Below the pieces are notes generated by a model that did no database searches, was not told where the DNA came from, and worked only from the letters and a program-made list of their open reading frames with translations. 64,000 nt of DNA from Acidimicrobiales bacterium (GTDB lineage Bacteria > Actinomycetota > Acidimicrobiia > Acidimicrobiales > JAJPHD01), in contig JBOGGT010000076.1 in assembly GCA_050744225.1 (NCBI GenBank), forward strand, positions 63,503 to 127,502, in the 5' to 3' direction. The translations under genes and the position numbers were made by a program. Each line of letters begins with the position of its first letter. Within the stretch, counting starts at the first letter, position 1. Shown one piece after another: positions 3,554 through 40,014 of the stretch.

Positions 3554-5311
3554 TCAAGAAGCGGCGGTCACATCGGAGCTGGTCGGAATGCCCGAGCGAC
3601 TCAACTGGAGGTGCAATGAGCGCAACTGAGCCTCCAGGGCCGTCGCGCTCTCGTGGTGCGCGTCGAGAAGGTAGACGTGGCCGGGACGAAGCTCAGGCCA
3701 AGACGAACCCATTGCGAGGTTGGTCGAGCGCAGGATCCGTTCGTGGCTTGCCGAAGCAAAGATGAGGGAGGAATCGTTGACCCACTTGCCGGGTATGTAC
3801 AGGTTGCAGGGTTCCCCGGTGTCCCTGGAGATCAGCTTTGCTGTGTTGGTGACATTGTCGTCGACAGAGAGTAGCGCCAGGCCTCCCGGCGGCGTGTTGC
3901 CCCCATTGGCCACGGTCACCCCGGCGTCGGCCATGTCCCGCACCTCTGTCGGATATTTTGCGGCCAGGCTGCCGTCGATGACAGCCCCCAGGTGGTACTC
4001 GGCCAGGATCCCCGGGACGTCGGAATCGGCCATCGCGCTGGCGTCGAGCCGCACGAATGCGTAGACCGCGGTGCTGTTCGCAGGGGGATGGGCTGCGTCC
4101 AGGCCGGCCGCGTTGGCCGCATCACCCGCCATGTTCAATCCGGTGAAGACCGCGGCGGCAGCCATACCCGTCAGGGCCAGGCGCCGAGCCATTGGGTGGG
4201 GGATGGGGCTCGGGATCGGGTCACTGGCGAAAGCTACCTCCGCGACATCGCTGGCGGCGTCCCCGCAGAACATTGCCTGTCCGAGCTGTGCGAACTGCCC
4301 CGTGCCGTCGGCGGCTCGATCCAGGGCGGCCGCGAGACCCCCGACGTCGGTGGCAAAGACTGCGACCCCCGCGCGGTCCATCTCGATGGCGTTCTGGCGA
4401 CCGTGGCCTGGGATGGGCCGGTACGTCACGACCGGAAGCCCGGCGGCAAAGGCTTCCATGCAGGTGAGGCCTCCGGCGTTTTGCAACAGGACGTCCGAGG
4501 CCGCCATGAGAGTGGCCATGGCGTTGGTCCAGCCGAGCACCATGCCGGTCCCCCGCGCCTCCAGCCGTTCGCGCAGCTTGGCATTTTGCCCGCACACCAC
4601 GAGTGGGAACCAGCCCTCGCACGCCGCCAGGGCATCAAGGGTCTCCTCCAGCTCGCCCACGCCCCAGGATCCGGCCACCACCAGGACCACCCGCGCCTCG
4701 GCGCGCAGGCCCAGCTCGCCTCTCGCATCGGCTCGTTGGGGCAGGGAGGCTCTGAAGGCCTCGGCCACCATGGGACCAGGAGAGGCAGATGGCCTGCCCG
4801 TGGCCGCCTCGGCCGCGCTGGCGGAAAAGGGGTGCACGCACAGGTTCAGGTCGATGCCCCGGTGTACCCAGAGGGGGTGGACCGCAAAGTCTGTGACGAA
4901 AGTGATGGCCGGCACCGCCAGCCTTCTCCATCGCCGGGTTCGGAGCCTGCCGAGCACCACCGAGGCCAGCGGGTAAGTCGACACCACGGTGCTGGCGCCC
5001 AGCTCGGCCGCCCAGCGCATGAGCCTGCGCCCAAAGATCGCTCCCATGAGGAGCGCCAGCGGAGCGCACAGCACCGCTCCGACGAACCACACCCGGTAGG
5101 TCGCCTCGTAGGCCCAAGGGGCATGGTTGAGCTGGAACTCGAAGACCGCCTTGATAATCCGACCGATGCGCGGCGAGGCGTCGAGGAAGTCCACCGTCGC
5201 GCAGCGCACCCCCTTGGCTTCCAGACGCTTGGTCAGCTCGCGCGCCGCTCCGTCGTGGCCGGCACCCATGCTCGCCGATACCACCAGGACACTCGTAGTC
5301 ACAGCGGACAA
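3554..5311 (-). CDS. MGDG-synthase/GT28-like glycosyltransferase with a TM segment and an extra C-terminal domain
   Basis: The N-terminus VLVVSASMGAGHDGAARELTKRL is typical of diacylglycerol glycosyltransferases. It is followed by a GT-B C-terminal half, a hydrophobic segment and an uncharacterised ~190-aa domain. Confidence 0.7.
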   Translation of the reverse strand: MSAVTTSVLVVSASMGAGHDGAARELTKRLEAKGVRCATVDFLDASPRIGRIIKAVFEFQLNHAPWAYEATYRVWFVGAVLCAPLALLMGAIFGRRLMRWAAELGASTVVSTYPLASVVLGRLRTRRWRRLAVPAITFVTDFAVHPLWVHRGIDLNLCVHPFSASAAEAATGRPSASPGPMVAEAFRASLPQRADARGELGLRAEARVVLVVAGSWGVGELEETLDALAACEGWFPLVVCGQNAKLRERLEARGTGMVLGWTNAMATLMAASDVLLQNAGGLTCMEAFAAGLPVVTYRPIPGHGRQNAIEMDRAGVAVFATDVGGLAAALDRAADGTGQFAQLGQAMFCGDAASDVAEVAFASDPIPSPIPHPMARRLALTGMAAAAVFTGLNMAGDAANAAGLDAAHPPANSTAVYAFVRLDASAMADSDVPGILAEYHLGAVIDGSLAAKYPTEVRDMADAGVTVANGGNTPPGGLALLSVDDNVTNTAKLISRDTGEPCNLYIPGKWVNDSSLIFASASHERILRSTNLAMGSSWPELRPGHVYLLDAHHESATALEAQLRSLHLQLSRSGIPTSSDVTAAS

Positions 5312-6354: not shown

Positions 6355-6476
6355 ACTTGAGTGGGCACTGATGGGGCCGCGGAAAGTCCTAATTTCAGGT
6401 AGAATGTCCCACAATTCATGGGACTGTGAGGGCAGGGCCGGGGATTTGGTGCTCCCGGTCCGTGCCGGAGGAGAAT

Positions 6477-6761
6477 GTGGACTCTACTCATCCAGGTTGG
6501 GACAGCGGACAGTGGCGGGGCGGAGCCGCATGTCGGGAGGTGGAGCCTTCGCTGTTCTTCCCGGTCGGCGTCACCGGCCCGGCGGAGGTACAGATCATTG
6601 CCGCCAAGGCGGTGTGCGGGCGTTGCAAAGTCCGGGAGGTCTGCTTGGAGTTCGCTCTCCAGACCAATCAGGAGTACGGGGTGTGGGGCGGGATGGACGA
6701 GGACGAGCGCCGGGCGGTCCGGCGAGCCAGGCGAGCGGCCCGGCTGCGCGCCGCTTCCTAG
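6477..6761 (+). CDS. whiB: WhiB-family transcriptional regulator
   Basis: The four Cys (C-X22-CGRC-X5-C layout, ACRE...CGRCKVREVC) and the GVWGG turn are present, with a basic tail. The GTG at 6477 is preceded by GGAGGAG. Confidence 0.85.
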   Translation: MDSTHPGWDSGQWRGGAACREVEPSLFFPVGVTGPAEVQIIAAKAVCGRCKVREVCLEFALQTNQEYGVWGGMDEDERRAVRRARRAARLRAAS

Positions 6762-26065: not shown

Positions 26066-26569
26066 TCAGGATGGGGCGATTACGTTGCAGCCGAGCGAGC
26101 CCGCGGCGGCAGCCATCCTGTGGTCATAGGTGACCAAGCAAGCCAGGTCGTCGCCCAGTTGCAACGCGGTGGCCAGATGGATGGCGTCCAAGGAACGCAC
26201 AGTTGCGGGCCGGATCTTGGTTGCCGAGGAGAGGACCCGGTCGCTCACCCGCAACAGATCAATCCTCCTCAGGACATCTGTTCCCCGGCGGCGGGCGGTG
26301 GGACCGAGGCGGAGCTTGGCGAGGACCGATGAAGGGGGTTCCTGGCCAGGCTCGATGACCAGTGGTGGGGGAAGATCGTCCATCGCAGCGTTGGCCGGGG
26401 CTACTTCCCCGCTCGTGCGGAGCCGATCAAGGGGGCTGGCGGGGGGAAGCGGGCTGAGCAGTGCCACCGGTCGACCCCGATCAGTGATCTCGAAGACCTC
26501 CCCCCGCTCCACCTGGCGCAGGAGTTCGCTCGCCCGCTGCCTTAGCTCCCTGACCCCCACGGTCTCCAT
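26066..26569 (-). CDS. Phd/YefM-type antitoxin fused in frame to the C-terminal half of a PIN (VapC) toxin
   Basis: The N-terminus METVGVRELRQRASELLRQVERGEVFEITDRGRPVALL is antitoxin-like. The C-terminus ...VRSLDAIHLATALQLG....LVTYDHRMAAAAGSLG is the PIN C-terminal half. The PIN N-terminal acidic residues are absent. Confidence 0.6.
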   Translation of the reverse strand: METVGVRELRQRASELLRQVERGEVFEITDRGRPVALLSPLPPASPLDRLRTSGEVAPANAAMDDLPPPLVIEPGQEPPSSVLAKLRLGPTARRRGTDVLRRIDLLRVSDRVLSSATKIRPATVRSLDAIHLATALQLGDDLACLVTYDHRMAAAAGSLGCNVIAPS

Positions 26570-26595
26570 GTGCTAACAGTAGCACGTGGACCGTC

Positions 26596-27822
26596 CTAGA
26601 TGGCCGGTGGCTTCTCCAGGAGAGGCATCCCGCACAGGGCGCGGCCCACGAAGTCGTAGAGGGCGTCGGTGGTCGGTGCCATCACCCGCGCGGCACGGGC
26701 GTCGCGGAAGCGGCGCTCCACCCCCAGCTCTTTGCGGAAGGCCGAGCCCCCGCAGACCTTCATCGCCAGGTCGGTGACTGCCAGTGCGGCCTCCGAGGCG
26801 GCGGCCTTGACCTCCAGCACCCGCAGCACGGCCTCGGGTCGGCCCTTGTCCCAGGCGGCCACGGTCTCGCGCAGCAGGGCCGCCGCAGAATCGGTGGCGA
26901 TGCGCATCCGGGCCAGATCCGCTCTGGGGATCGGCAGGTCCGCCAGGCTGGCGTCCAGGTGGGCTAGGCGTGCCCTACCCAGGTGAGCAATGGCCTCGGT
27001 GGTCACTGCCTCGGCGAGCCCGACGCTGAAGGCGGCGTTGAGCACCAAGAACCAAGGCAGGATGCTGATCATCGCCAGGTCGAGGCCCGTCCCGTCAGCG
27101 CCCAGTATGTCGGCGAGATCGACCACCACCCCTTCGGCGGTGACCGGTACCGAGCCGTTGCCCCGCAGCCCCAGGCCGTCGAAACCACCGGCCACGCTCA
27201 GGCCCGAGGCGCCGGAGCGGACCAGCCAGAGGGTCATCGCCCCCGACCCGGACACCGGCCGGCTGGACCACACGTAGCAGGCTGCCTCGCGAGCCGAGGT
27301 CACCCAGCTCTTGCGGGCGTCGAGGCGCGCCTTCCCCGGCAAGGCGCCCCCCTCCCCGGCGGCGCCCCCCTCCCCGGAGGCGTCTCCCCCGGAGGCGTCT
27401 CCCCCGGAGGCGCCGGCCTCCCCCGCCTTCCCGACGGTGCTCGCGGTGCCCATCGGGACCCAGAACTGGCTCCCCGAGCCGAACTCGGAGAAGGCGATGG
27501 TGGACAGCCAGGAGCCGTCGGCGACTGCCCGGCGGGCCGGATCGGACCCGTACGCCCCGATCGCCGACGCCGCGGTGTAGTGCATCATCAGGACCATGGC
27601 GCTGGACCCGCAGTGGCGGGCGAGTGCCTCGACCACCTCGGCAGCGGCCCGCAGGCCCTGGCCCATCCCCCCGAGCTCGGTCGGGCCGACGAGGCCCAGC
27701 AGCCCGGAGGAACGCAGGGCCTCAACAGTCTCGGCGGGGAACCGCCCGTCGCGGTCCACCTCCAGGGCGTGGGCGGCGGCGACCGGGACGACGGCGGCCA
27801 GTGCCTCGCGGAAGTGGCTCAA
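26596..27822 (-). CDS. acyl-CoA dehydrogenase family protein
   Basis: ...EVDRDGRFPAETVEALRSSGLLGLVGPTELGG... and a C-terminal ACAD helical domain. The TTG at 27822 overlaps the TGA of the upstream small gene. It contains a Gly/Ala/Glu repeat insertion. Confidence 0.8.
   Translation of the reverse strand: MSHFREALAAVVPVAAAHALEVDRDGRFPAETVEALRSSGLLGLVGPTELGGMGQGLRAAAEVVEALARHCGSSAMVLMMHYTAASAIGAYGSDPARRAVADGSWLSTIAFSEFGSGSQFWVPMGTASTVGKAGEAGASGGDASGGDASGEGGAAGEGGALPGKARLDARKSWVTSAREAACYVWSSRPVSGSGAMTLWLVRSGASGLSVAGGFDGLGLRGNGSVPVTAEGVVVDLADILGADGTGLDLAMISILPWFLVLNAAFSVGLAEAVTTEAIAHLGRARLAHLDASLADLPIPRADLARMRIATDSAAALLRETVAAWDKGRPEAVLRVLEVKAAASEAALAVTDLAMKVCGGSAFRKELGVERRFRDARAARVMAPTTDALYDFVGRALCGMPLLEKPPAI
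27343..27427. repeat. tandem repeats of 18, 18, 15 and 15 nt plus a degenerate unit
   Basis: Read directly. It encodes ...GGDASGGDASGEGGAAGEGGA... inside the ACAD. Confidence 0.9.
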
Positions 27823-28052
27823 CCCCCTCGCTCCTCGGGGGGCGGCTCGCGCCCCCCGGCGGCCATGCGGGTGCGGACCAGCACCTCGTGTTCCCATGGG
27901 CGGGGGTCCGCGCCGAAGTCGTAGAACAGGCAACCCTCCGGGCATGCAAACGGGTCGCTCTCGTTCATGTCCACCCGGCAGGTCTCTACCCGCTCCGAGC
28001 CGCCCGGCGCGCCGTTCGGCAGGTAATGAAGGCAATCGGTGTTCACGGCCAT
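27819..28052 (-). CDS. small conserved 4-Cys protein (paralog 1), unknown function
   Basis: MAVNTDCLHY...ERVETCRVDMNESDPFACPEGCLFYD aligns with the ORF at 37042..37329. Its stop overlaps the ACAD start. Confidence 0.6.
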   Translation of the reverse strand: MAVNTDCLHYLPNGAPGGSERVETCRVDMNESDPFACPEGCLFYDFGADPRPWEHEVLVRTRMAAGGREPPPEERGG

Positions 28053-28153
28053 GCGCCCATACTAGTTCCACCGGGCCGGTGTCCGGGCGAGGCGTAGTCC
28101 AGCCGTCATCCGCCCGCAACCTGCCCGAAACCTGACTCCGCTTGCCTGGCGAC

Positions 28154-30718
28154 ATGGAAAGGAGGCGCAGTCTCGTCGTGGCCGGCCACGGCATGGTCGG
28201 TCACCGCCTGGTCGAGATGCTGGTCGAGCGGGGCTTCACGAAGCACACCGACCTGTCGGTCTTTTCAGAGGAGCCCCGCCCCGCCTACGACCGGGTGGCC
28301 CTTTCCTCACTGTTCTCAGGCAGCACCCCTGAGGAATTGAGCCTGTTGCGCCCTGGCTTCGTGCCCACTCCCGGCCTGTCCCTGCACCTGGCCGAGTCGG
28401 TGAGTGCCATCGACCGGGCAAAAAAGGTGGTCACCTCCTCCTCTGGCCGCCAGGCCCCCTACGACACGCTGGTGCTCGCCACGGGTTCCGCACCTTTCGT
28501 CCCGCCGATACCGGGTACCGACGCGGCGGGCTGCTTCGTCTACCGGACGGTGCAAGACGTGGAGGCGATCAAGGCCTGGGCGGCACACTGCCAGGTGGGG
28601 GTGGTCATCGGCGGCGGCCTCCTGGGTCTGGAGGCGGCCAACGCCCTGCTCCAGCTGGGCTTGACCACCCACGTGGTGGAGCTGGCCCCGCGGCTCATGC
28701 CCCTGCAGGTGGACGAGGGCGGGGGAGTGGCGCTGCGCCGCCAGGTCGAGGCGCTGGGGGTCATCGTGCATCCTGGCGCGAGAAGCGCCGAGGTGCTCAC
28801 CTGGGCGGCCAGGGCGCGCAGCCCCCGGAGGGTGAGCGGCATCCGCCTTGACGACGGCTCCGACCTGGTGGCGGGAATAGTGGTCTTCTCTGCCGGGATC
28901 CGGCCCCGTGACCAGCTGGCCCGGGATTGCGGCCTCGCTCTGGGAGAGCGCGGGGGGATCTCGGTCGACGAGGGATGCGTGAGCTCGGACCCGGCGGTGC
29001 TGGCCATCGGGGAGTGCGCCCTGGTGGCGGGGCGGACTTGGGGACTGGTCTCTCCGGGCTACCAGATGGCGAGGGTGGTGGCCGACAGGCTCACCGGAGT
29101 GCCCGACGCTGCGTTCACCGGAGCCGACCTGTCCACCAAGCTCAAGCTTTTGGGCGTGGATGTGGCCAGCTTCGGCGACGCCCACGGTGCGGCCCCCGGA
29201 GCGGAGGCGATCTTGTTCTCCGACGCCCGGGCCAACATCTACCGCAAGCTGGTGGTGGATGTCGCCGACGGCCGGGTGCTGGGCGGTGTCCTGGTCGGGG
29301 ATGCCTCCGGCTACACCGAGCTGGCGGCCATGGCTCAGGGCACCATGTCCACCCCGGAACAGCTGGCCGCCATGGTCCTTCCGGCGGGCGCAGCCGCCGG
29401 GACGGGAGCGCGCCTCGCCGGGGTCGGGGCTCTGGCCGGTGCTTCGACCATCTGCAACTGCGAGAACGTGTCCAAGGACTCGATCTGCACCGCGATCGCG
29501 CTCGGGGCCACCGAGGTCGGGGCGATAAAGGGTGCGACCCGGGCCGGCACTGGGTGCGGGGCTTGCGTGCCCCTGCTGGTCGACCTGCTGGCCGAGGAGG
29601 GTGTCGACTCGGCGAGCCAGCTCTGCGAGCACTTCGCCTACACGCGCCAGGAGCTGTTTGACATCGTGCGCATCGAGCACATCACCAGCTTCTCCGAGCT
29701 GGTATCGACCAGGGGAGTCGGCCGGGGCTGCGAGATATGCAAGCCAGCGGTCGCCTCGATGCTGGCCTCGCTCGGAGGTGGGTACATCCTGGAAGGGGAG
29801 CAGGCGAGCCTGCAGGACACCAACGACCACTTCCTGGCCAACCTCCAGCGTGACGGCACCTACTCGGTGATCCCCAGGATTCCAGGCGGCGAGATCACCC
29901 CGGCCAAGCTGGTAACCCTCGGCCAGGTCGCCGCCGAGTTCGGCCTGTATACCAAGATCACCGGTGCCCAGCGCATAGACCTCCTCGGGGCCAGGGTGGG
30001 GGACCTGCCCGCCATATGGTCCAGGTTGGTGGCCGCAGGCTTCGAGTCAGGCCACGCCTACGGCAAGGCCCTGCGGACGGTCAAGTCCTGCGTGGGGACC
30101 ACCTGGTGCCGTTACGGGGTCCAGGACTCCACAGCCCTGGCGATCGAGCTCGAGCTGCGCTACAGGGGGCTGCGCTCGCCCCACAAGCTCAAATCCGCGG
30201 TGTCGGGGTGCTCGCGCGAGTGTGCCGAAGCCCAGTCCAAGGACTTCGGGGTCATTGCCACCGAGGCGGGGTGGAACCTGTACGTGTGCGGCAACGGGGG
30301 TACCCGCCCCCGCCACGCCGTGCTGCTGGCCTCCGACCTGGACCGCGAGGCCCTCATCCGGGTCATCGACCGGTTCCTGATCTTCTACATCCGCACCGCC
30401 GGGCGCCTGGAGCGCACCGCCAGCTGGCTCGAAAAGCTCGACGGCGGTATCGACTACCTGCGCTCGGTGGTGGTGGACGATGCACTGGGCCTGGGTGCAG
30501 AGCTGGAGGCGGCGATGGAGTCCCACGTCGCCGGCTACGCCTGCGAGTGGCGCGAGACCCTCGAGGACCCCGAGCGGGTGGCGCGCTTCTCACACTTTGT
30601 GAACAGCGCCGAGCCGGACCCGGGCGTGGTGATGGTGCCCGAGCGAGGTCAGCTCCGGCCCGCACCGACCAAGAAGCTGGAGCCCAAAAAGCTGGAAGGG
30701 GCGCGAGCCACCAGGTGA
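28154..30718 (+). CDS. nirB: NAD(P)H-dependent nitrite reductase large subunit
   Basis: N-terminal FAD/NAD fold (LVVAGHGMVGHRL), a BFD-like [2Fe-2S] region (CNCENV...GTGCGAC) and the sirohaem/4Fe-4S motifs (KSCVGTTWCRYG, SGCSRECAEA). Confidence 0.9.
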   Translation: MERRRSLVVAGHGMVGHRLVEMLVERGFTKHTDLSVFSEEPRPAYDRVALSSLFSGSTPEELSLLRPGFVPTPGLSLHLAESVSAIDRAKKVVTSSSGRQAPYDTLVLATGSAPFVPPIPGTDAAGCFVYRTVQDVEAIKAWAAHCQVGVVIGGGLLGLEAANALLQLGLTTHVVELAPRLMPLQVDEGGGVALRRQVEALGVIVHPGARSAEVLTWAARARSPRRVSGIRLDDGSDLVAGIVVFSAGIRPRDQLARDCGLALGERGGISVDEGCVSSDPAVLAIGECALVAGRTWGLVSPGYQMARVVADRLTGVPDAAFTGADLSTKLKLLGVDVASFGDAHGAAPGAEAILFSDARANIYRKLVVDVADGRVLGGVLVGDASGYTELAAMAQGTMSTPEQLAAMVLPAGAAAGTGARLAGVGALAGASTICNCENVSKDSICTAIALGATEVGAIKGATRAGTGCGACVPLLVDLLAEEGVDSASQLCEHFAYTRQELFDIVRIEHITSFSELVSTRGVGRGCEICKPAVASMLASLGGGYILEGEQASLQDTNDHFLANLQRDGTYSVIPRIPGGEITPAKLVTLGQVAAEFGLYTKITGAQRIDLLGARVGDLPAIWSRLVAAGFESGHAYGKALRTVKSCVGTTWCRYGVQDSTALAIELELRYRGLRSPHKLKSAVSGCSRECAEAQSKDFGVIATEAGWNLYVCGNGGTRPRHAVLLASDLDREALIRVIDRFLIFYIRTAGRLERTASWLEKLDGGIDYLRSVVVDDALGLGAELEAAMESHVAGYACEWRETLEDPERVARFSHFVNSAEPDPGVVMVPERGQLRPAPTKKLEPKKLEGARATR

Positions 30719-34807: not shown

Positions 34808-36046
34808 ATGGCCACTGACCGGATCGTTCCTGCCCAGCTCCACCCGTTCGCCCGTCCAGCCGCCGAGGCGGCCAGCTTCGTGAACATCGTCTCGGGACAC
34901 GGGGCGACGGTCACCGACGACCACGGCAACGACTACGTGGATGCCCTTGGCAGCCTGTGGTACTGCCAGATCGGGCATGGCCGGGAGGAGATGGCTGAGG
35001 CCATCGCCGCGCAGTGCCGCACCCTGGCGGGATTCCATACTTTTGACCGTTTCGCCAACCCGCCGGCTGAGGCTCTCTGCGCGGAGCTGGTCGGGATGGC
35101 GCCCATGGACGGCGCCCGGGTGTTCCTAACCAGTGGAGGGTCTGAGGCGGTCGAATCCGCGATAAAGCTGGCCAGGATGGCCCAGGTGCGTTCTGGGCAC
35201 TCGGAACGGACACTGATCGTGAGCCGGCGCCCCTCTTATCACGGCGTCACCTATGGCGCGATGTCTGCCACCGGACTTCCCCCCAACCAGGAGGGCTGGG
35301 GAGCCCTGCTGCCCGATATGGTGCAGGTGGACAGGGACGACCTTGACAAGCTGGACGCGCTGCTTGCGGAAGAGGGTTCCCGCTTGGCTGCGATCATCGC
35401 CGAGCCGGTGATCGGTGCCGCGGGGGTGTACCCGCCAGCGCCGGGCTACCTTGCGGGGCTGCGGGAGCGTTGCGACCGCCTCGGTGCCTACCTGATCCTG
35501 GACGAGGTTGTCTGCGCCTTCGGGCGGCTCGGGACCTGGTGGGCGGCGGAGTACTTCGATGTTCGGCCCGATCTGGTGACCTTTGCCAAAGGCGTCACCT
35601 CGGGCTACCAGCCCGTGGGCGGAGTGCTGGTGGGCCGGGCGGTTCGTGAGCCGTTGGAGGCCGACCCGGCGTTCTTGTTGCGCCACGGCAACACCTACAG
35701 CGGTCACCCCGCCGGGTGCGCGGCGGGCCTGGCCAACCTGGCGATCATGCGCCGGGAGGGCCTCCTCGGACGCTCCGTGGAGGTGGGTGCGGCCCTACGG
35801 TCGGGGCTGGAGAGCCTGGTTGACGGCTCCAGGGTCACAGAGGTTCGAGGGGCGGGAGCCGTTTGGGCGCTGGGGTTCGGCCCAGGGGCGGATGCGGTGG
35901 CCGTCCGCAACGCCATGTTGGCGCGTGGGGTGATCGCCCGGCCCATAGGTCCATCCACCATGGCGTTCTGCCCTCCCCTGGTGATCACCGACGCCGAGAT
36001 GGATCACCTGGTCAGCGCCACTGGCGAGGCGATCGTCGCGTGCTGA
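34808..36046 (+). CDS. class-III (omega) aminotransferase
   Basis: WYCQIGHGR..., SGSEAVE, LILDEVVCAFGRLG and TFAKGVTSGYQP (PLP lysine) motifs. Confidence 0.85.
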   Translation: MATDRIVPAQLHPFARPAAEAASFVNIVSGHGATVTDDHGNDYVDALGSLWYCQIGHGREEMAEAIAAQCRTLAGFHTFDRFANPPAEALCAELVGMAPMDGARVFLTSGGSEAVESAIKLARMAQVRSGHSERTLIVSRRPSYHGVTYGAMSATGLPPNQEGWGALLPDMVQVDRDDLDKLDALLAEEGSRLAAIIAEPVIGAAGVYPPAPGYLAGLRERCDRLGAYLILDEVVCAFGRLGTWWAAEYFDVRPDLVTFAKGVTSGYQPVGGVLVGRAVREPLEADPAFLLRHGNTYSGHPAGCAAGLANLAIMRREGLLGRSVEVGAALRSGLESLVDGSRVTEVRGAGAVWALGFGPGADAVAVRNAMLARGVIARPIGPSTMAFCPPLVITDAEMDHLVSATGEAIVAC

Positions 36047-36996
36047 GCCCCAGCGAACTGGTCCGTGACTACGACGCGCTTCGCCATGGCCTGGGCGGGG
36101 CGTGGGTGGACCGTGACGTAATCAGGGTCGCAGGACCCCAGGCCATTGCCTACCTTCAGGGTCAGCTCAGCCAGGACGTGGTGGCCCTGGCAGTCGGCGG
36201 GTCTGCGCCGTCGTTGCTGCTCTCTCCTCAGGGGAAGGTGGACGCCTGGCTCCGGGTGACCAGGGTGGCGGACGACGCCTGCCTGCTCGATGTCGACGCC
36301 GGGTGGGGGGAGGCGGTGATGGAGCGCCTCGGCCGCTTCAAACTGCGGACGAAGATGGAGATGAGCGCTGGTGCTGCCTGGCGCTGCCTGGCGTTGCGGG
36401 GTCCGGGAGTCGCCGGCGTTCCAGGCGCGGCCGGGCTGGTGGTTCCGGCGTTCTGGCCAGGCGTGGAGGGAGTCGACCTACTGGGAGAGTCGGTGGAGGT
36501 GCCCCCGGGTGTCACACTGGTCGGGCCCGATGCGCTCAGGGCCCTGCGGGTGGAGGCGGGCGTGCCCGCGATGGGCTCCGAGCTGGGCCCCAAGACGATC
36601 CCGGCCGAGGCGGGCCTGGTGGCGGCCTCGGTGAGCTTTACCAAGGGTTGCTACACCGGGCAGGAGCTGGTTGCCAGGATCGACTCGCGGGGAAACCGGG
36701 TGCCCAGGCGGCTGCGCGGCGTGGTGGTCGCGTGGGAACTGCTGGAGCGTCTGGGGGCCGCCTCCGCCTCGGCGTTGGCCCACCCACACAGCTCGCCCCC
36801 GCCGGTAGGGGCTGAGCTGGTCCTCGATGACAAGGTTGTCGGGGCGCTGACCAGCGTCGCATCCTCCCCCGGCCTGGAGGCCGTGGTGGCACTGGCCTAC
36901 GTCCGGCGCGAGGTCGAGCCGCCAGTGGAGCTGAGCCTGAGGTGGGATGACGCCTCTGTGGCAGCCCAGGTCCGGGAGTTGCCCCTGGTCGGGTGA
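36040..36996 (+). CDS. ygfZ: folate-binding YgfZ/GcvT-like protein
   Basis: AYLQGQLSQD... and the FTKGCYTGQELVARI signature. GTG start overlapping the upstream stop. Confidence 0.75.
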   Translation: MLSPSELVRDYDALRHGLGGAWVDRDVIRVAGPQAIAYLQGQLSQDVVALAVGGSAPSLLLSPQGKVDAWLRVTRVADDACLLDVDAGWGEAVMERLGRFKLRTKMEMSAGAAWRCLALRGPGVAGVPGAAGLVVPAFWPGVEGVDLLGESVEVPPGVTLVGPDALRALRVEAGVPAMGSELGPKTIPAEAGLVAASVSFTKGCYTGQELVARIDSRGNRVPRRLRGVVVAWELLERLGAASASALAHPHSSPPPVGAELVLDDKVVGALTSVASSPGLEAVVALAYVRREVEPPVELSLRWDDASVAAQVRELPLVG

Positions 36997-37041: not shown

Positions 37042-37329
37042 CTAGCTGTTCCCCCCGTCGCTGCGTCTTGGGCCCCGGCCCTTTGGGGGCTGGATCCAGC
37101 CAGCGTTGGACACTCCCCGGGGCTCGTAGAACAGGCATCCCTCGGGGCAGGCGAACGGGAGGCTCTGGTTGGCCTCGATCCTGCAGCGCTCGACCCGTTC
37201 CACCGGGCCGGCGCCGCTGGGTCCCGAGCCGGAGCGCGCTCGGCCTCCGTCGACTCTGCGTGGGCGGGTCGGTGACTGGCCGCCCACCGACTGCATTACA
37301 TAGTGACGGCAGTCCTCGTTCACGGCCAT
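37042..37329 (-). CDS. small conserved 4-Cys protein (paralog 2), unknown function
   Basis: The ATG at 37329 gives MAVNEDCRHY...ERVERCRIEANQSLPFACPEGCLFYE. It has the same motif order as 27819..28052, with a Gly/Arg/Ser-rich insertion. Confidence 0.6.
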   Translation of the reverse strand: MAVNEDCRHYVMQSVGGQSPTRPRRVDGGRARSGSGPSGAGPVERVERCRIEANQSLPFACPEGCLFYEPRGVSNAGWIQPPKGRGPRRSDGGNS

Positions 37330-37384
37330 GCTCCATGGTGCCAGATGCGGGCACCAGATAGGTGGCGGCTGTAAGGTCGGCCAC

Positions 37385-38071
37385 GTGGAGGACAAGTCGA
37401 TCAGCCGGGCCGAGATGGCGCGCTGGAGCCAGAGCCTTGCGGCCATCGCCCGCACTGGCCTCGGGTTCACCCAGAATCTCTACGAGCGGGAGCGTTTCGA
37501 GGAGGTCCTGAAGGTCGCTGCGGACATCGCGGTGGCCTCCACTGGCCCCAAGGTGGAGGATCCGGCCGAGCTGGTGGAGGGCTGGCTAGGGGAGGTGGTC
37601 GCCGGGGTGCCTGGCTATGTGACCCCCAAGGTGGCGGTCGGGGCAGTGGTGGGCAACGAGGCCGCTGAGATCCTCTTGGTGCGCCGAGCCGATTCGGGGG
37701 CTTGGCTGTATCCCACCGGTTGGGCAGATGTGGGCTACTCGGCCTCGGAAGTGGTGGTCAAGGAGGTCATGGAGGAGACCGGGATCGAGGCGGTGCCCGT
37801 AAGGGTGATCGCGGTGCTCGACGGGCTCAGGCTCGGCTTCAACCGGGTTCCGCTCTACTCGGTGGTCTTCCAGTGCAGGGCGGTCGGTGGTGCTCTGGCT
37901 GCCCACCCCTTGGAGTGCTCCGATGTCGGCTGGTTCGCCCAGGATGCGCTCCCGGAGCCGATCATAAGTGCGTCGCACTGGGTGGCTCACGCCTTCGCGT
38001 CGCTGCGGAACGAGCCCATCGAGGTGATGTTCGACCCCCCTCGGCCCGCACCGTGGCGAGTCCCTGGCTGA
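37385..38071 (+). CDS. NUDIX hydrolase with a NUDIX-associated N-terminal domain
   Basis: Nudix box GWADVGYSASEVVVKEVMEETGIE. The N-terminal ...IARTGLGFTQNLYERERFEE is typical of the N-terminal helper domain. Confidence 0.8.
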   Translation: MEDKSISRAEMARWSQSLAAIARTGLGFTQNLYERERFEEVLKVAADIAVASTGPKVEDPAELVEGWLGEVVAGVPGYVTPKVAVGAVVGNEAAEILLVRRADSGAWLYPTGWADVGYSASEVVVKEVMEETGIEAVPVRVIAVLDGLRLGFNRVPLYSVVFQCRAVGGALAAHPLECSDVGWFAQDALPEPIISASHWVAHAFASLRNEPIEVMFDPPRPAPWRVPG

Positions 38072-38095: not shown

Positions 38096-38485
38096 GTGAT
38101 GCAGCGATGGCTCGGCCCCAGGGCGCTCGGATTGCACCTGGTGGTCCTGATCTGGGCTCCTGGGTGCATCGTCGCCGGCATCTGGCAGGTGAACGTGGCC
38201 CTGTCGGGCCTTCGCCTCGCCTGGGTCTACAGCATCGAGTGGCCGGCCTTCGCGCTGTTGGGCATTGCGGTGTGGTACCACCTCATCGTGGACGATCGGT
38301 CGACCACCGGCAGGGAAGGCCTGCGTAAGGCTCGCCAGGCTGCCGGGTTGGTCGATGTCCCCGTGGCAGAGCGGGTGGCCGCCGTGCGGCGCCCGGAGTT
38401 GGAGGACGAGCGCCTGGCCGCTTACAACGACTACCTGGCGTCGCTGGCCGCGAGTGGGCGCCGTAAGACCGTACGGCATCCGTGA
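38096..38485 (+). CDS. small membrane protein, unknown function
   Basis: Two hydrophobic segments plus a charged tail. Its stop overlaps the start of the next gene. Confidence 0.45.
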   Translation: MMQRWLGPRALGLHLVVLIWAPGCIVAGIWQVNVALSGLRLAWVYSIEWPAFALLGIAVWYHLIVDDRSTTGREGLRKARQAAGLVDVPVAERVAAVRRPELEDERLAAYNDYLASLAASGRRKTVRHP

Positions 38486-40014
38486 AGGAGCTGCTGGCTT
38501 ACCGCATCATGGCCTACGTGGTGGGGGTGGGCCTGATCCTGGTGTGCGCGGGGATACCGCCACAGCTGCTCGGGTACCCCGAGTTCGAGAACGTCATCGG
38601 GGTGGTCCACGGCATCTTCTACATCATCTACCTGCTGGCGTCCTTCGCGCTCTACCGCAAGGCACATTTCACCAAGTTGCAGCTGGTGGGGCTGGTATCT
38701 GCTGGCTTTGTACCGCTCTTGGCCTTCTACGTGGAGCGCCGGACCACCAAGCGCATCAGCCGTGACCTGGTGGCGCTGGATCTCGCAGCCGGCCCCAGCA
38801 CCCCCGGCCCCAGCACCCCCGGCCCCAGCACCTCCGGCCCCAGCACCTCCGGCCCCAGCACCTCCGGCCCCAGCACCGTGACGCCGGAGTCCTGAGCGTC
38901 CGGCGAACCCAGCCCCAGACGCCAGCACCACGATCCCGAGGATCGCGATCAGCGGACCGGTGTTGGGGTCGGTTGACGAGCCGCTGGTCAGCTCGCCCAG
39001 ACCCTGGCCCAGGACCCAGTCGGCGAGCGCAAGGCAGATCCCGACGCTGGCAGCCACCTTCCGCGGCCATCCGCCAAACAGAGCCACCACGCCGATCAGG
39101 GCCTCAACCACCCCCAAGCCGACGATCAGGCCATTGCCGGCGGACAAGATCCAAGCCGCCGCCGAGTAGTCCCAACCGGCCAGCCAGGTGGGGCTGCCTG
39201 GTGCCAGTGCCAGTGGTCCCCCGGCGAGGGCGTCCGCGCTGGCCTGGGCGGGCAGGGAAAGCAGCACCACGCCCCCGATCCACAGCACGGCCCAGGCGAC
39301 CACTGCCCAGGTCCTGGGGGGGAGGTCGGAGCCGCGGGCCCCAGCCAGCAGGCCCGTAGAAACCCGAGAAGCTGCGTGGCGCAACCGTCCAACCTCCGAC
39401 CGTCCGTTTGCAGAGCCCGCAGAGCCCGCAGAGCCCGCAGAGCCCGCAGAGCCCGCAGAGCCCGCAGAGCCTGCAGAGCCTGCAGAGCTGTTGGCCTTGG
39501 CTGGCCAGGCGACCAGGCCGAGCGTCACGTAAATCAGCGCCGCTCCCGGAGCCCCGGTGGAGATGGCGGCGTGCCCGGCTGCGATGGCGTCCAAGCCCTC
39601 GCCGAAGTACCACACGGCAAGGCCCCAAACCACAGACAAGGCCAGCGCGGCCCGCACTGTCGGACGGATCAGGAGCCCGAGCCCGATGAGTAGCTGTATC
39701 GAGGCGAAGGTGGCGTCGAAACCGAACGGGTGAGTCTGGATCAGGGCGACGGCCCATCCGACTGGAACCGAGACGAATGCCGGCTCGCCGATGCCTTGGG
39801 GCGCGATCACCGTGGCGGCAAAGCCGTTGCCAAACATAAAGGGCTGGAGCTGGAGCAGCCCGTCGAGGAGCCACAAAACCCCCAGGACCAGCTGGATGCC
39901 CCGCCGGGTGACCCGTACCCGCGGGACCCTCCAGCGCACCCTCCGACGCGCTGACCCGACTTCCGGAGAGGAGCTTGCGTCAATCCCTGGCCGTGCCGTA
40001 CCTACGCCTGCCAT
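38431..40014 (-). CDS. polytopic membrane protein (DoxX-like topology), unknown function
   Basis: Repeated hydrophobic segments from 40014 to about 38900. The first in-frame stop is only at 38431, so the ORF runs antisense through the DUF3817 gene. Confidence 0.5.
   Translation of the reverse strand: MAGVGTARPGIDASSSPEVGSARRRVRWRVPRVRVTRRGIQLVLGVLWLLDGLLQLQPFMFGNGFAATVIAPQGIGEPAFVSVPVGWAVALIQTHPFGFDATFASIQLLIGLGLLIRPTVRAALALSVVWGLAVWYFGEGLDAIAAGHAAISTGAPGAALIYVTLGLVAWPAKANSSAGSAGSAGSAGSAGSAGSAGSAGSANGRSEVGRLRHAASRVSTGLLAGARGSDLPPRTWAVVAWAVLWIGGVVLLSLPAQASADALAGGPLALAPGSPTWLAGWDYSAAAWILSAGNGLIVGLGVVEALIGVVALFGGWPRKVAASVGICLALADWVLGQGLGELTSGSSTDPNTGPLIAILGIVVLASGAGFAGRSGLRRHGAGAGGAGAGGAGAGGAGAGGAGAGGAGAGCEIQRHQVTADALGGPALHVEGQERYKASRYQPHQLQLGEMCLAVEREGRQQVDDVEDAVDHPDDVLELGVPEQLWRYPRAHQDQAHPHHVGHDAVSQQLLHGCRTVLRRPLAASDAR
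38482..38895 (+). CDS. DUF3817-type membrane protein with a (GPSTP) repeat tail
   Basis: MKELLAYRIMAYVVGVGLI...VVHGIFYIIYL...GFVPLLAFYVERR. Confidence 0.7.
   Translation: MKELLAYRIMAYVVGVGLILVCAGIPPQLLGYPEFENVIGVVHGIFYIIYLLASFALYRKAHFTKLQLVGLVSAGFVPLLAFYVERRTTKRISRDLVALDLAAGPSTPGPSTPGPSTSGPSTSGPSTSGPSTVTPES
38791..38880. repeat. 15-nt tandem repeat x6 (ggccccagcacc[cct]cc)
   Basis: Read directly. It encodes GPSTP/GPSTS on the + strand and GAGGA on the - strand. Confidence 0.95.
39411..39488. repeat. 9-nt tandem repeat, about 8 units (cagagcccg)
   Basis: Read directly. It encodes (SAG)n in a loop of the minus-strand membrane protein. Confidence 0.95.

Follow-up and report, generated by a model that had tools for sequence, protein, structure and literature searches.

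The 64,000-nucleotide stretch of Acidimicrobiales DNA analyzed here (contig JBOGGT010000076.1, positions 63,503 to 127,502; hereafter the window) carries on its minus strand, at 27819..28052, an ATG-initiated gene (ORF A) for a 77-amino-acid protein with four cysteines, whose sequence begins MAVNTDCLHYLPNGAPGGSERVETCRVDMNESDPFACPEGCLFYDF. Sequence comparison places this protein in a large unnamed family of Cys4 mini-proteins conserved across the class Acidimicrobiia. The explanation that we favor, with somewhat less than even confidence, is that the members would be Cys4 metal or iron-sulfur (Fe-S) mini-proteins with an accessory role in the biogenesis of Fe-S clusters, whether as carrier, adaptor or sensor. 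An initial annotation of the window, made from the sequence alone, had placed a 77-amino-acid product at these coordinates and given its cysteine spacing as C-X17-C-X11-C-X3-C; both were borne out, the cysteines of ORF A being arranged as C7-x17-C25-x11-C37-x3-C41.

ORF A is a genuine gene, subject to purifying selection. The G+C content at third codon positions (GC3) was 0.85 in its frame, and comparison with the 85%-identical orthologue at locus L004 revealed 8, 5 and 25 substitutions at codon positions 1, 2 and 3, respectively; of the codon changes, 19 were synonymous and 11 nonsynonymous. A protein identical to that of ORF A is called in three public assemblies (identical contigs), and orthologues were found (P0001 and P0002). 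The GC3 value, the excess of third-position substitutions, the conserved homologues and the public gene calls together support this conclusion. A spurious ORF A would imply that the acyl-CoA dehydrogenase (ACAD) gene downstream of it truly starts further upstream, in another frame, and a 532-amino-acid ATG-initiated ORF (26596..28194) is indeed present in the ACAD frame. However, GC3 was only 0.61 in the part of this frame upstream of the TTG codon that opens the ACAD gene, compared with 0.85 in ORF A and 0.90 in the ACAD body, and the amino acid conservation of ORF A persists at locus L001, where no ACAD directly follows. Moreover, the family has thousands of homologues, and hundreds to thousands of them, in other genomes, keep the cysteines. 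These results and the public gene calls refute the spurious reading, whose probability we consider practically nil.

Scanning species-representative genomes (one per GTDB species) recovered more than 570 family loci, the best 80 of which all belonged to Acidimicrobiales or Actinomycetota metagenome-assembled genomes. An exhaustive hidden Markov model search gave 149 clusters at 50% identity. A sister subfamily (ii), in which the cultured Ilumatobacter fluminis is represented, numbers at least 8000 clusters at 90% identity. Its proteins of about 115 amino acids have the consensus MPMRxECKHFESRTYxNGExVRKCxLDLAPEAPWRCPExCPxYExR..DAGW, and profile comparison shows it to be homologous to the first subfamily (hhalign probability 98%, E 3e-14). 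Family proteins are about 55-120 residues long and share a module of about 50 residues, C-x16/17-C-x11-C-P-x2-C followed by a conserved Trp. They are recognized by a start directly before [DE]-C-[RK]-H-[YF], a Cys-Pro at the third cysteine and a Trp 12-13 residues past the last cysteine. All homologues retain the four cysteines, with x16/x11/x3 spacing in 204 of 240; the x11 and x3 spacings are fixed and insertions are confined to the first loop. Several subfamilies also have highly basic C-terminal tails.

The window contains a second member, ORF B (37042..37329, minus strand), which encodes a 95-amino-acid protein of the clade here called type B. The two products are 44% identical (BLASTP, E 3e-16) and align with all invariant columns of the family, confirming the paralogy that the initial annotation had proposed from the shared skeleton MAVN-DC-HY / ERVE-CR / PFACPEGCLFY.

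Pfam-A and NCBIfam scans of ORF A (at E ≤ 1), ORF B and eight distant members matched no family of any kind, in agreement with the earlier remark that the cysteine pattern is not that of a standard ferredoxin. Profile searches of PDB sequences with three family alignments returned nothing or chance matches at E ≥ 0.5 (NDUFS5, potato inhibitor). The source annotation of every family member is 'hypothetical protein', and no relevant description turned up in the literature searched for a small suf-linked protein of Acidimicrobiia. Among the 149 representative clusters, long domain 'fusions' were rejected as mis-called GC-rich ORFs or frameshift read-throughs into neighboring genes, the read-through partners being SufB, Hsp33-like and ApbE-like proteins (all three by sequence reading) and Glyoxalase_6 (Pfam). 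A match of the family to a eukaryotic LCCL repeat was likewise spurious.

The genes of the family share an unusual signal directly before the start codon. In an alignment of the 25 nt upstream of the start at 138 unique loci, a NANNNT hexamer lay 5-8 nt before the start in 132 regions (96%), compared with 9% in the background, and the stricter NAN[AT][AT]T was found in 60%, compared with 0.6%. The typical hexamer is A/T-rich (CAGAAT, TAGAAT or TAGTAT), and Shine-Dalgarno-like 4-mers occurred in only 13 of the 138 regions. ORF A has the -10-like hexamer TAGTAT (28059..28064, minus strand) 6 nt upstream of its ATG (TAGTAT-GGGCGC-ATG), a putative leaderless promoter, and the hexamer of its orthologues, equally distant from the start, reads TAGTAT, TAGAAT or TATAAT; in ORF B the hexamer is CACCAT (37335..37340, minus strand), 5 nt upstream of the ATG. 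Leaderless transcripts are common in Actinomycetota. A -10-like box 5-8 nt before the start, together with the lack of a Shine-Dalgarno sequence, suggests that the family genes give leaderless transcripts, and such a -10-to-start architecture would also explain the invariant N-terminus of the proteins.

The clearest indication of function came from the neighboring genes. In one large clade of subfamily ii the small gene lies within the suf operon, in the order sufB - small gene - sufD - Rieske - sufC (Ilumatobacter fluminis, L086 6001-6360, and three other long contigs), an order that recurred at about 24 of 80 metagenome loci. Its position beside sufD is kept where sufB is displaced (L168, L134, L144, L148 and L167) or where the orientation is flipped (L152 and L159). 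A gene for an Mrp/ApbC Fe-S carrier (ParA + FeS_assembly_P) lies downstream in a smaller group of 6 loci. At type-B loci (78 in all), a LarE-type PP-loop sulfur transferase (TIGR00268, 281 bits, above cutoff) is convergent downstream in 45, a NUDIX hydrolase with Nudix_N is divergent about 50-100 nt upstream in 64, and a CoA-disulfide-reductase-like flavoprotein (TIGR03385, 423 bits, below cutoff) is divergent upstream in at least 13. A YgfZ/CAF17-like protein (TIGR03317, above cutoff) is encoded convergently beside ORF B and at L007 and L010. Apparent 'Suf' matches at type-B loci proved to be generic ABC ATPases with 25-27% identity.

Taken together, four invariant cysteines in a module of about 50 residues, in proteins with no evident signal peptide, point to a Cys4 metal site. 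The cysteines would ligate a metal center, most probably an Fe-S cluster and less probably Zn, since CxxC knuckles are lacking, Cys-Pro and C-x3-C are present, and AlphaFold gave no fold for the apo-sequence (pLDDT 47-50). Because sufB/sufD, Mrp/ApbC, YgfZ and LarE-like genes recur as neighbors in different clades, the family may serve the SUF system as a small carrier, adaptor or sensor in the biogenesis or trafficking of Fe-S clusters. In this reading, ORF A is an extra copy that arose in a shallow Acidimicrobiales lineage and was inserted between nirBD and a FadE16-like ACAD gene. A more specific form of this proposal, which we put forward only tentatively, is that the family is a hitherto unrecognized, class-specific component of the actinobacterial SUF network, a leaderless Cys4 cluster carrier, adaptor or sensor with its gene between sufB and sufD in genomes like that of Ilumatobacter, and that paralogues such as ORF A are specialized for particular clients, for example NirB.

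Several observations weigh against a role in Fe-S biogenesis. AlphaFold2 reached a pLDDT of only 50 for ORF A (35-sequence alignment) and 47 for the family member P0006 (106-sequence alignment), with no usable fold or ligand geometry, and the cysteine spacing fits no defined Fe-S or Zn motif. The suf linkage is confined to one clade: there are no suf genes in the window, and no suf linkage was found for ORF A, ORF B or type B. The type-B genes, which form the clade nearest to ORF A, lie mostly beside the NUDIX and LarE-like genes, often convergently or divergently and not in an operon, so that this adjacency could be conserved housekeeping synteny. A further large subfamily-ii clade lacks any Fe-S link, following genes for RNase PH and a conserved unannotated 185-amino-acid protein (23 loci within 1.5 kb upstream, 27 overall). 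No Fe-S assembly gene adjoins ORF A itself. As to the putative leaderless promoter, a two-hexamer sigma-70 promoter scan of 26400-28300 gave no match.

The 185-residue protein of the RNase PH clade is acidic, has no Pfam or NCBIfam match and is 80-98% identical across 27 metagenome loci. Its gene follows that for RNase PH and precedes the small Cys4 gene, all on one strand (L116 4403-4960, L132 4419-4976 and L117 2985-3542). At L112 two subfamily-ii copies occur in tandem (441-722 and 1148-1435), each preceded by a (partial) copy of the 185-residue gene. Near type-B small genes, a chlorite-dismutase-family gene, HemQ/ChdC-like by sequence reading, was observed a few kb downstream (L013 5818-7566, L171 11506-11986 and L173 8758-9012), and its recurrence suggests an extended conserved neighborhood.

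The ACAD gene next to ORF A was the basis of a different functional proposal. It lies on the minus strand (26596..27822), encodes a FadE16-like (Rv1679-like) protein of 408 amino acids with Pfam domains Acyl-CoA_dh_N, _M, _1 and _2, and its best NCBIfam model was NF049984 (Rv1679/FadE16) with 371 bits, below the 600-bit cutoff. The stop codon of ORF A (TGA, 27821-27819) overlaps the TTG (27822-27820) to form TTGA, as the initial annotation had described, and the same 4-nt overlap is present in the public gene calls on the three identical contigs. A TTG occupies the equivalent position in L004 and L006, the part of the N-terminal peptide that precedes the next GTG is conserved, and the Pfam Acyl-CoA_dh_N alignment begins with residue 15 against profile position 19. 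The conserved TTG, the Pfam N-terminus, the public calls and the low GC3 upstream argue that the ACAD gene truly begins at this TTG. A Shine-Dalgarno-like GAGGAG (27831..27836, minus strand) lies 8 nt upstream of the TTG, within the 3' end of ORF A; L004 has no equivalent, and L006 has AGGAG before its TTG.

On the other side of ORF A, separated by 89 nt and divergent from it, lies nirB (28142..30718, plus strand), encoding the large subunit of NAD(P)H-nitrite reductase (Pfam Pyr_redox_2, Fer2_BFD, NIR_SIR_ferr and NIR_SIR), an Fe-S/siroheme enzyme. The order nirB (divergent), small gene, FadE16-like ACAD characterizes the type-A clade, which consists of only four closely related genomes (the window, L004, L001/L002/L005 and L006) whose small proteins are 70-85% identical. 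A nirB gene adjoins the A-type gene in L001, L002, L003, L005, L006 and L174, and it is kept as well as the ACAD gene in every type-A genome with enough flanking sequence. The junction between the small gene and the ACAD gene varies: the two overlap by 4 nt in the window and are 2 nt apart in L004, while in L006 the distance is about 170 nt and the ACAD gene has an AGGAG Shine-Dalgarno sequence of its own. In L001/L002 they are separated by a presumed toxin-antitoxin pair, made up of a MazE-type antitoxin gene and a 149-amino-acid ORF (no Pfam match).

In the window genome, the TTGA overlap, the matching public gene calls and the finding of no terminator-like site in the scan of 26400-28300 indicate that ORF A is likely co-transcribed with the ACAD gene and possibly translationally coupled to it. 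To this extent the initial annotation, which had argued for coupling and a functional partnership, was upheld. The partnership itself, in which ORF A would be a dedicated small Fe-S redox partner of the ACAD, a ferredoxin-like acceptor or donor of electrons produced at a fixed ratio through translational coupling, fared less well, and we regard it as improbable. It draws support from the TTGA overlap and the 2-nt gap in L004, from the downstream ACAD in all four A-type genomes, and from nearby downstream ACADs at four subfamily-ii loci and at the Ilumatobacter suf loci. However, the junction is not conserved, and the A-type clade is so shallow that the adjacency may be merely inherited. An ACAD gene adjoins the small gene at none of the 78 type-B loci. 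In subfamily ii an ACAD lies within 1.5 kb downstream at only 4 of 86 loci, and three Ilumatobacter loci have one just past sufC; these ACADs are of the pimC-like type, unlike that of the window, to which they show no tblastn similarity. The suf-adjacent Ilumatobacter ACAD was rejected as an orthologue of the window ACAD on this ground and because their best NCBIfam models differ. Moreover, the recurrent neighbors of the family are Fe-S or sulfur-trafficking genes, and the usual electron acceptor of ACADs is electron-transfer flavoprotein (ETF) and not a small Cys4 protein. Co-occurrence or coupling with an ACAD is thus not conserved across lineages, being seen in one shallow clade with variable spacing and, in L001, an insertion. 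That ORF A serves the ACAD is weakly supported, and NirB is at least as plausible a client; nirB is equally conserved on the other side of ORF A.

Some further features of this region were noted. The N-terminal and middle domains of the ACAD are separated by an insertion rich in Gly, Ala, Ser and Asp (GGDASGGDASGEGGAAGEGGA), which is specified by two tandem-repeat arrays within the gene (27322-27412; 18 nt x 3.3 and 15 nt x 2.7). Directly downstream of the ACAD gene, a single ORF (26066-26569, minus strand) combines a Phd/YefM antitoxin N-terminus with a PIN-domain C-terminus and may be a decayed or frameshifted toxin-antitoxin pair; by contrast, the MazE-type and 149-residue genes of L001/L002 (L001 8281-8969) sit between the small gene and the ACAD gene. 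The nirB homologue of L001/L002 (L001 6569-7905) aligns only as 117 and 332 amino acids of the 858-amino-acid NirB of the window and may be truncated or frameshifted.

ORF B provides the second context of the family in the window. A search with its sequence recovered 195 homologues, and the protein P0003 is 99% identical to it. Both A and B copies are present in all three genomes that could be tested (the window, L005 + L010 and L006 + L007), which indicates that ORF A is a lineage-specific extra paralogue and ORF B the ancestral-type copy in the same genome. ORF B and P0003 have a low-complexity insertion of about 25 residues between the first and second cysteines (x41, compared with the canonical x16), and several other members have first-loop spacings of x21-x50, so that this loop is evidently permissive. 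Convergent with ORF B is the gene for the YgfZ/CAF17-like folate-binding protein (35863..36996, plus strand; Pfam GCV_T + GCV_T_C), which scored 67.9 bits against TIGR03317, above the 49-bit cutoff, and is found in the same position at L007 and L010; its start is uncertain, as the longest ORF overlaps an upstream aminotransferase gene. Proteins of this kind are implicated in 4Fe-4S assembly or repair.

Divergent from ORF B is the gene for a NUDIX hydrolase with Nudix_N (37328..38071, plus strand; Pfam NUDIX + Nudix_N). In its longest form this gene shares a single CATG with ORF B, common to the ORF B ATG on the minus strand and the NUDIX ATG at 37328 on the plus strand (window 37327-37412). 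Because the Nudix_N domain begins only at residue 30 of the longest ORF, the true start is probably the ATG at 37412, which would leave a divergent promoter region of 82 nt. Further on, two oppositely oriented ORFs for putative membrane proteins (38482-38895, plus; 38431-40014, minus) contain near-perfect tandem repeats, at 38789-38877 (15 nt x 5.9) and 39410-39488 (9 nt x 8.8), which specify PSTPG / GAGGA-type and GSA-type sequences.

Besides the ACAD partnership, three other explanations compete with a role of the family in Fe-S biogenesis. The four cysteines could bind zinc in a structural mini-protein with a housekeeping or regulatory function, for example as a transcription or translation accessory factor, unrelated to Fe-S assembly and with coincidental Fe-S neighbors. 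Class-wide conservation, tiny size and an apparent -10-like element of its own are shared with many core small proteins, Cys4 sites often bind Zn, and the varying contexts between clades and the highly basic tails of several subfamilies would fit such a role. On the other hand, the cysteines do not form the paired CxxC knuckle arrangement, four kinds of Fe-S or sulfur-trafficking neighbor recur in different clades, and the gene persists beside sufD through rearrangements, all of which makes a zinc protein rather unlikely. A thiol or coenzyme A (CoA) redox protein, in which dithiol/disulfide cysteines would act with the CoA-disulfide-reductase-like flavoprotein, the NUDIX hydrolase (possibly a CoA or CoA-disulfide pyrophosphatase) and acyl-CoA enzymes, would account for the first two neighbors at type-B loci and for the ACAD neighbors in several clades. 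We consider it very improbable: no thioredoxin-like CxxC motif is present, four invariant cysteines are more typical of metal ligation, and the suf-embedded clade is left unexplained.

The third alternative is that the proteins are functional analogues of the WhiB-like (Wbl) regulators, that is, Fe-S sensors of redox state or iron that control the transcription of genes such as suf, nirBD or other neighbors. Restriction to Actinomycetota, small size, four invariant cysteines followed by a Trp motif, and many basic tails speak for this, as do the common divergent arrangement with neighboring genes and a divergent WhiB7-like gene at four loci. However, the family is not homologous to Wbl proteins: hhalign against a Wbl alignment gave a probability of 0.1%, there was no match to Pfam Whib (PF02467), the cysteine spacing differs from C-xn-C-x2-C-x5-C, and the G[VI]WGG motif is absent. 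Membership of the Wbl family was rejected on these grounds, and functional analogy is, in our judgment, quite unlikely. The four divergent Wbl genes, all at subfamily-ii loci (L123, about 4700-5020, minus strand; L161; L164; L096), encode a C-terminal AT-hook (RPRGRPPKNPR), and the ordinary Wbl gene of the window (6426-6761, plus strand) lies far from ORF A and ORF B.

Although they abound in soils, fresh water and oceans, Acidimicrobiia have received almost no genetic study. The family described here, nearly universal in the class and with a proposed role in Fe-S biogenesis, is a concrete candidate for a new Fe-S assembly accessory factor or Fe-S-based regulator, and its conserved -10-box-to-start architecture offers a comparative example of leaderless gene organization in this class. 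For the window, this evidence-based broader context replaces the attractive but weakly supported idea of an ACAD redox partner.

The family resembles several known groups of small proteins without belonging to them. With zinc-ribbon/Cys4 mini-proteins, of which the Ruc/Rv0991c type is an example, it shares a Cys4 composition, a length below 100 residues and conservation in Actinomycetota, but it lacks their paired CxxC knuckles and has no sequence match to them. Cys-Pro, a terminal C-x3-C and four cysteines recall the ferredoxins, both the classical 4Fe-4S type (CxxCxxCxxxCP) and the thioredoxin-like [2Fe-2S] type (C-x10-12-C-x29-34-C-x3-C). Neither motif is present, however, no Fer4 or Fer2 Pfam profile matched at E ≤ 1, and the family proteins are about half the size of a thioredoxin-like ferredoxin; membership of the Fer4 clan was rejected because both its motif and a Fer4-type profile match are absent. 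Like the actinobacterial suf accessory genes (Rieske-type ferredoxin between sufD and sufC, SufT/DUF59 and SufA-type carriers), the family genes encode small Cys-rich proteins and in one clade hold a fixed slot between sufB and sufD, whereas they have no sequence relation to these genes, possess their own -10-like element and in many clades are not linked to suf. The Wbl [4Fe-4S] proteins differ in cysteine pattern (C-xn-C-x2-C-x5-C, compared with C-x16-C-x11-C-x3-C in the family) and in their G[VI]WGG turn, but they too are small, restricted to Actinomycetota and often basic at the tail, with four invariant cysteines and a Trp motif after the last one. By analogy with them, the family proteins plausibly depend on their cluster to fold.

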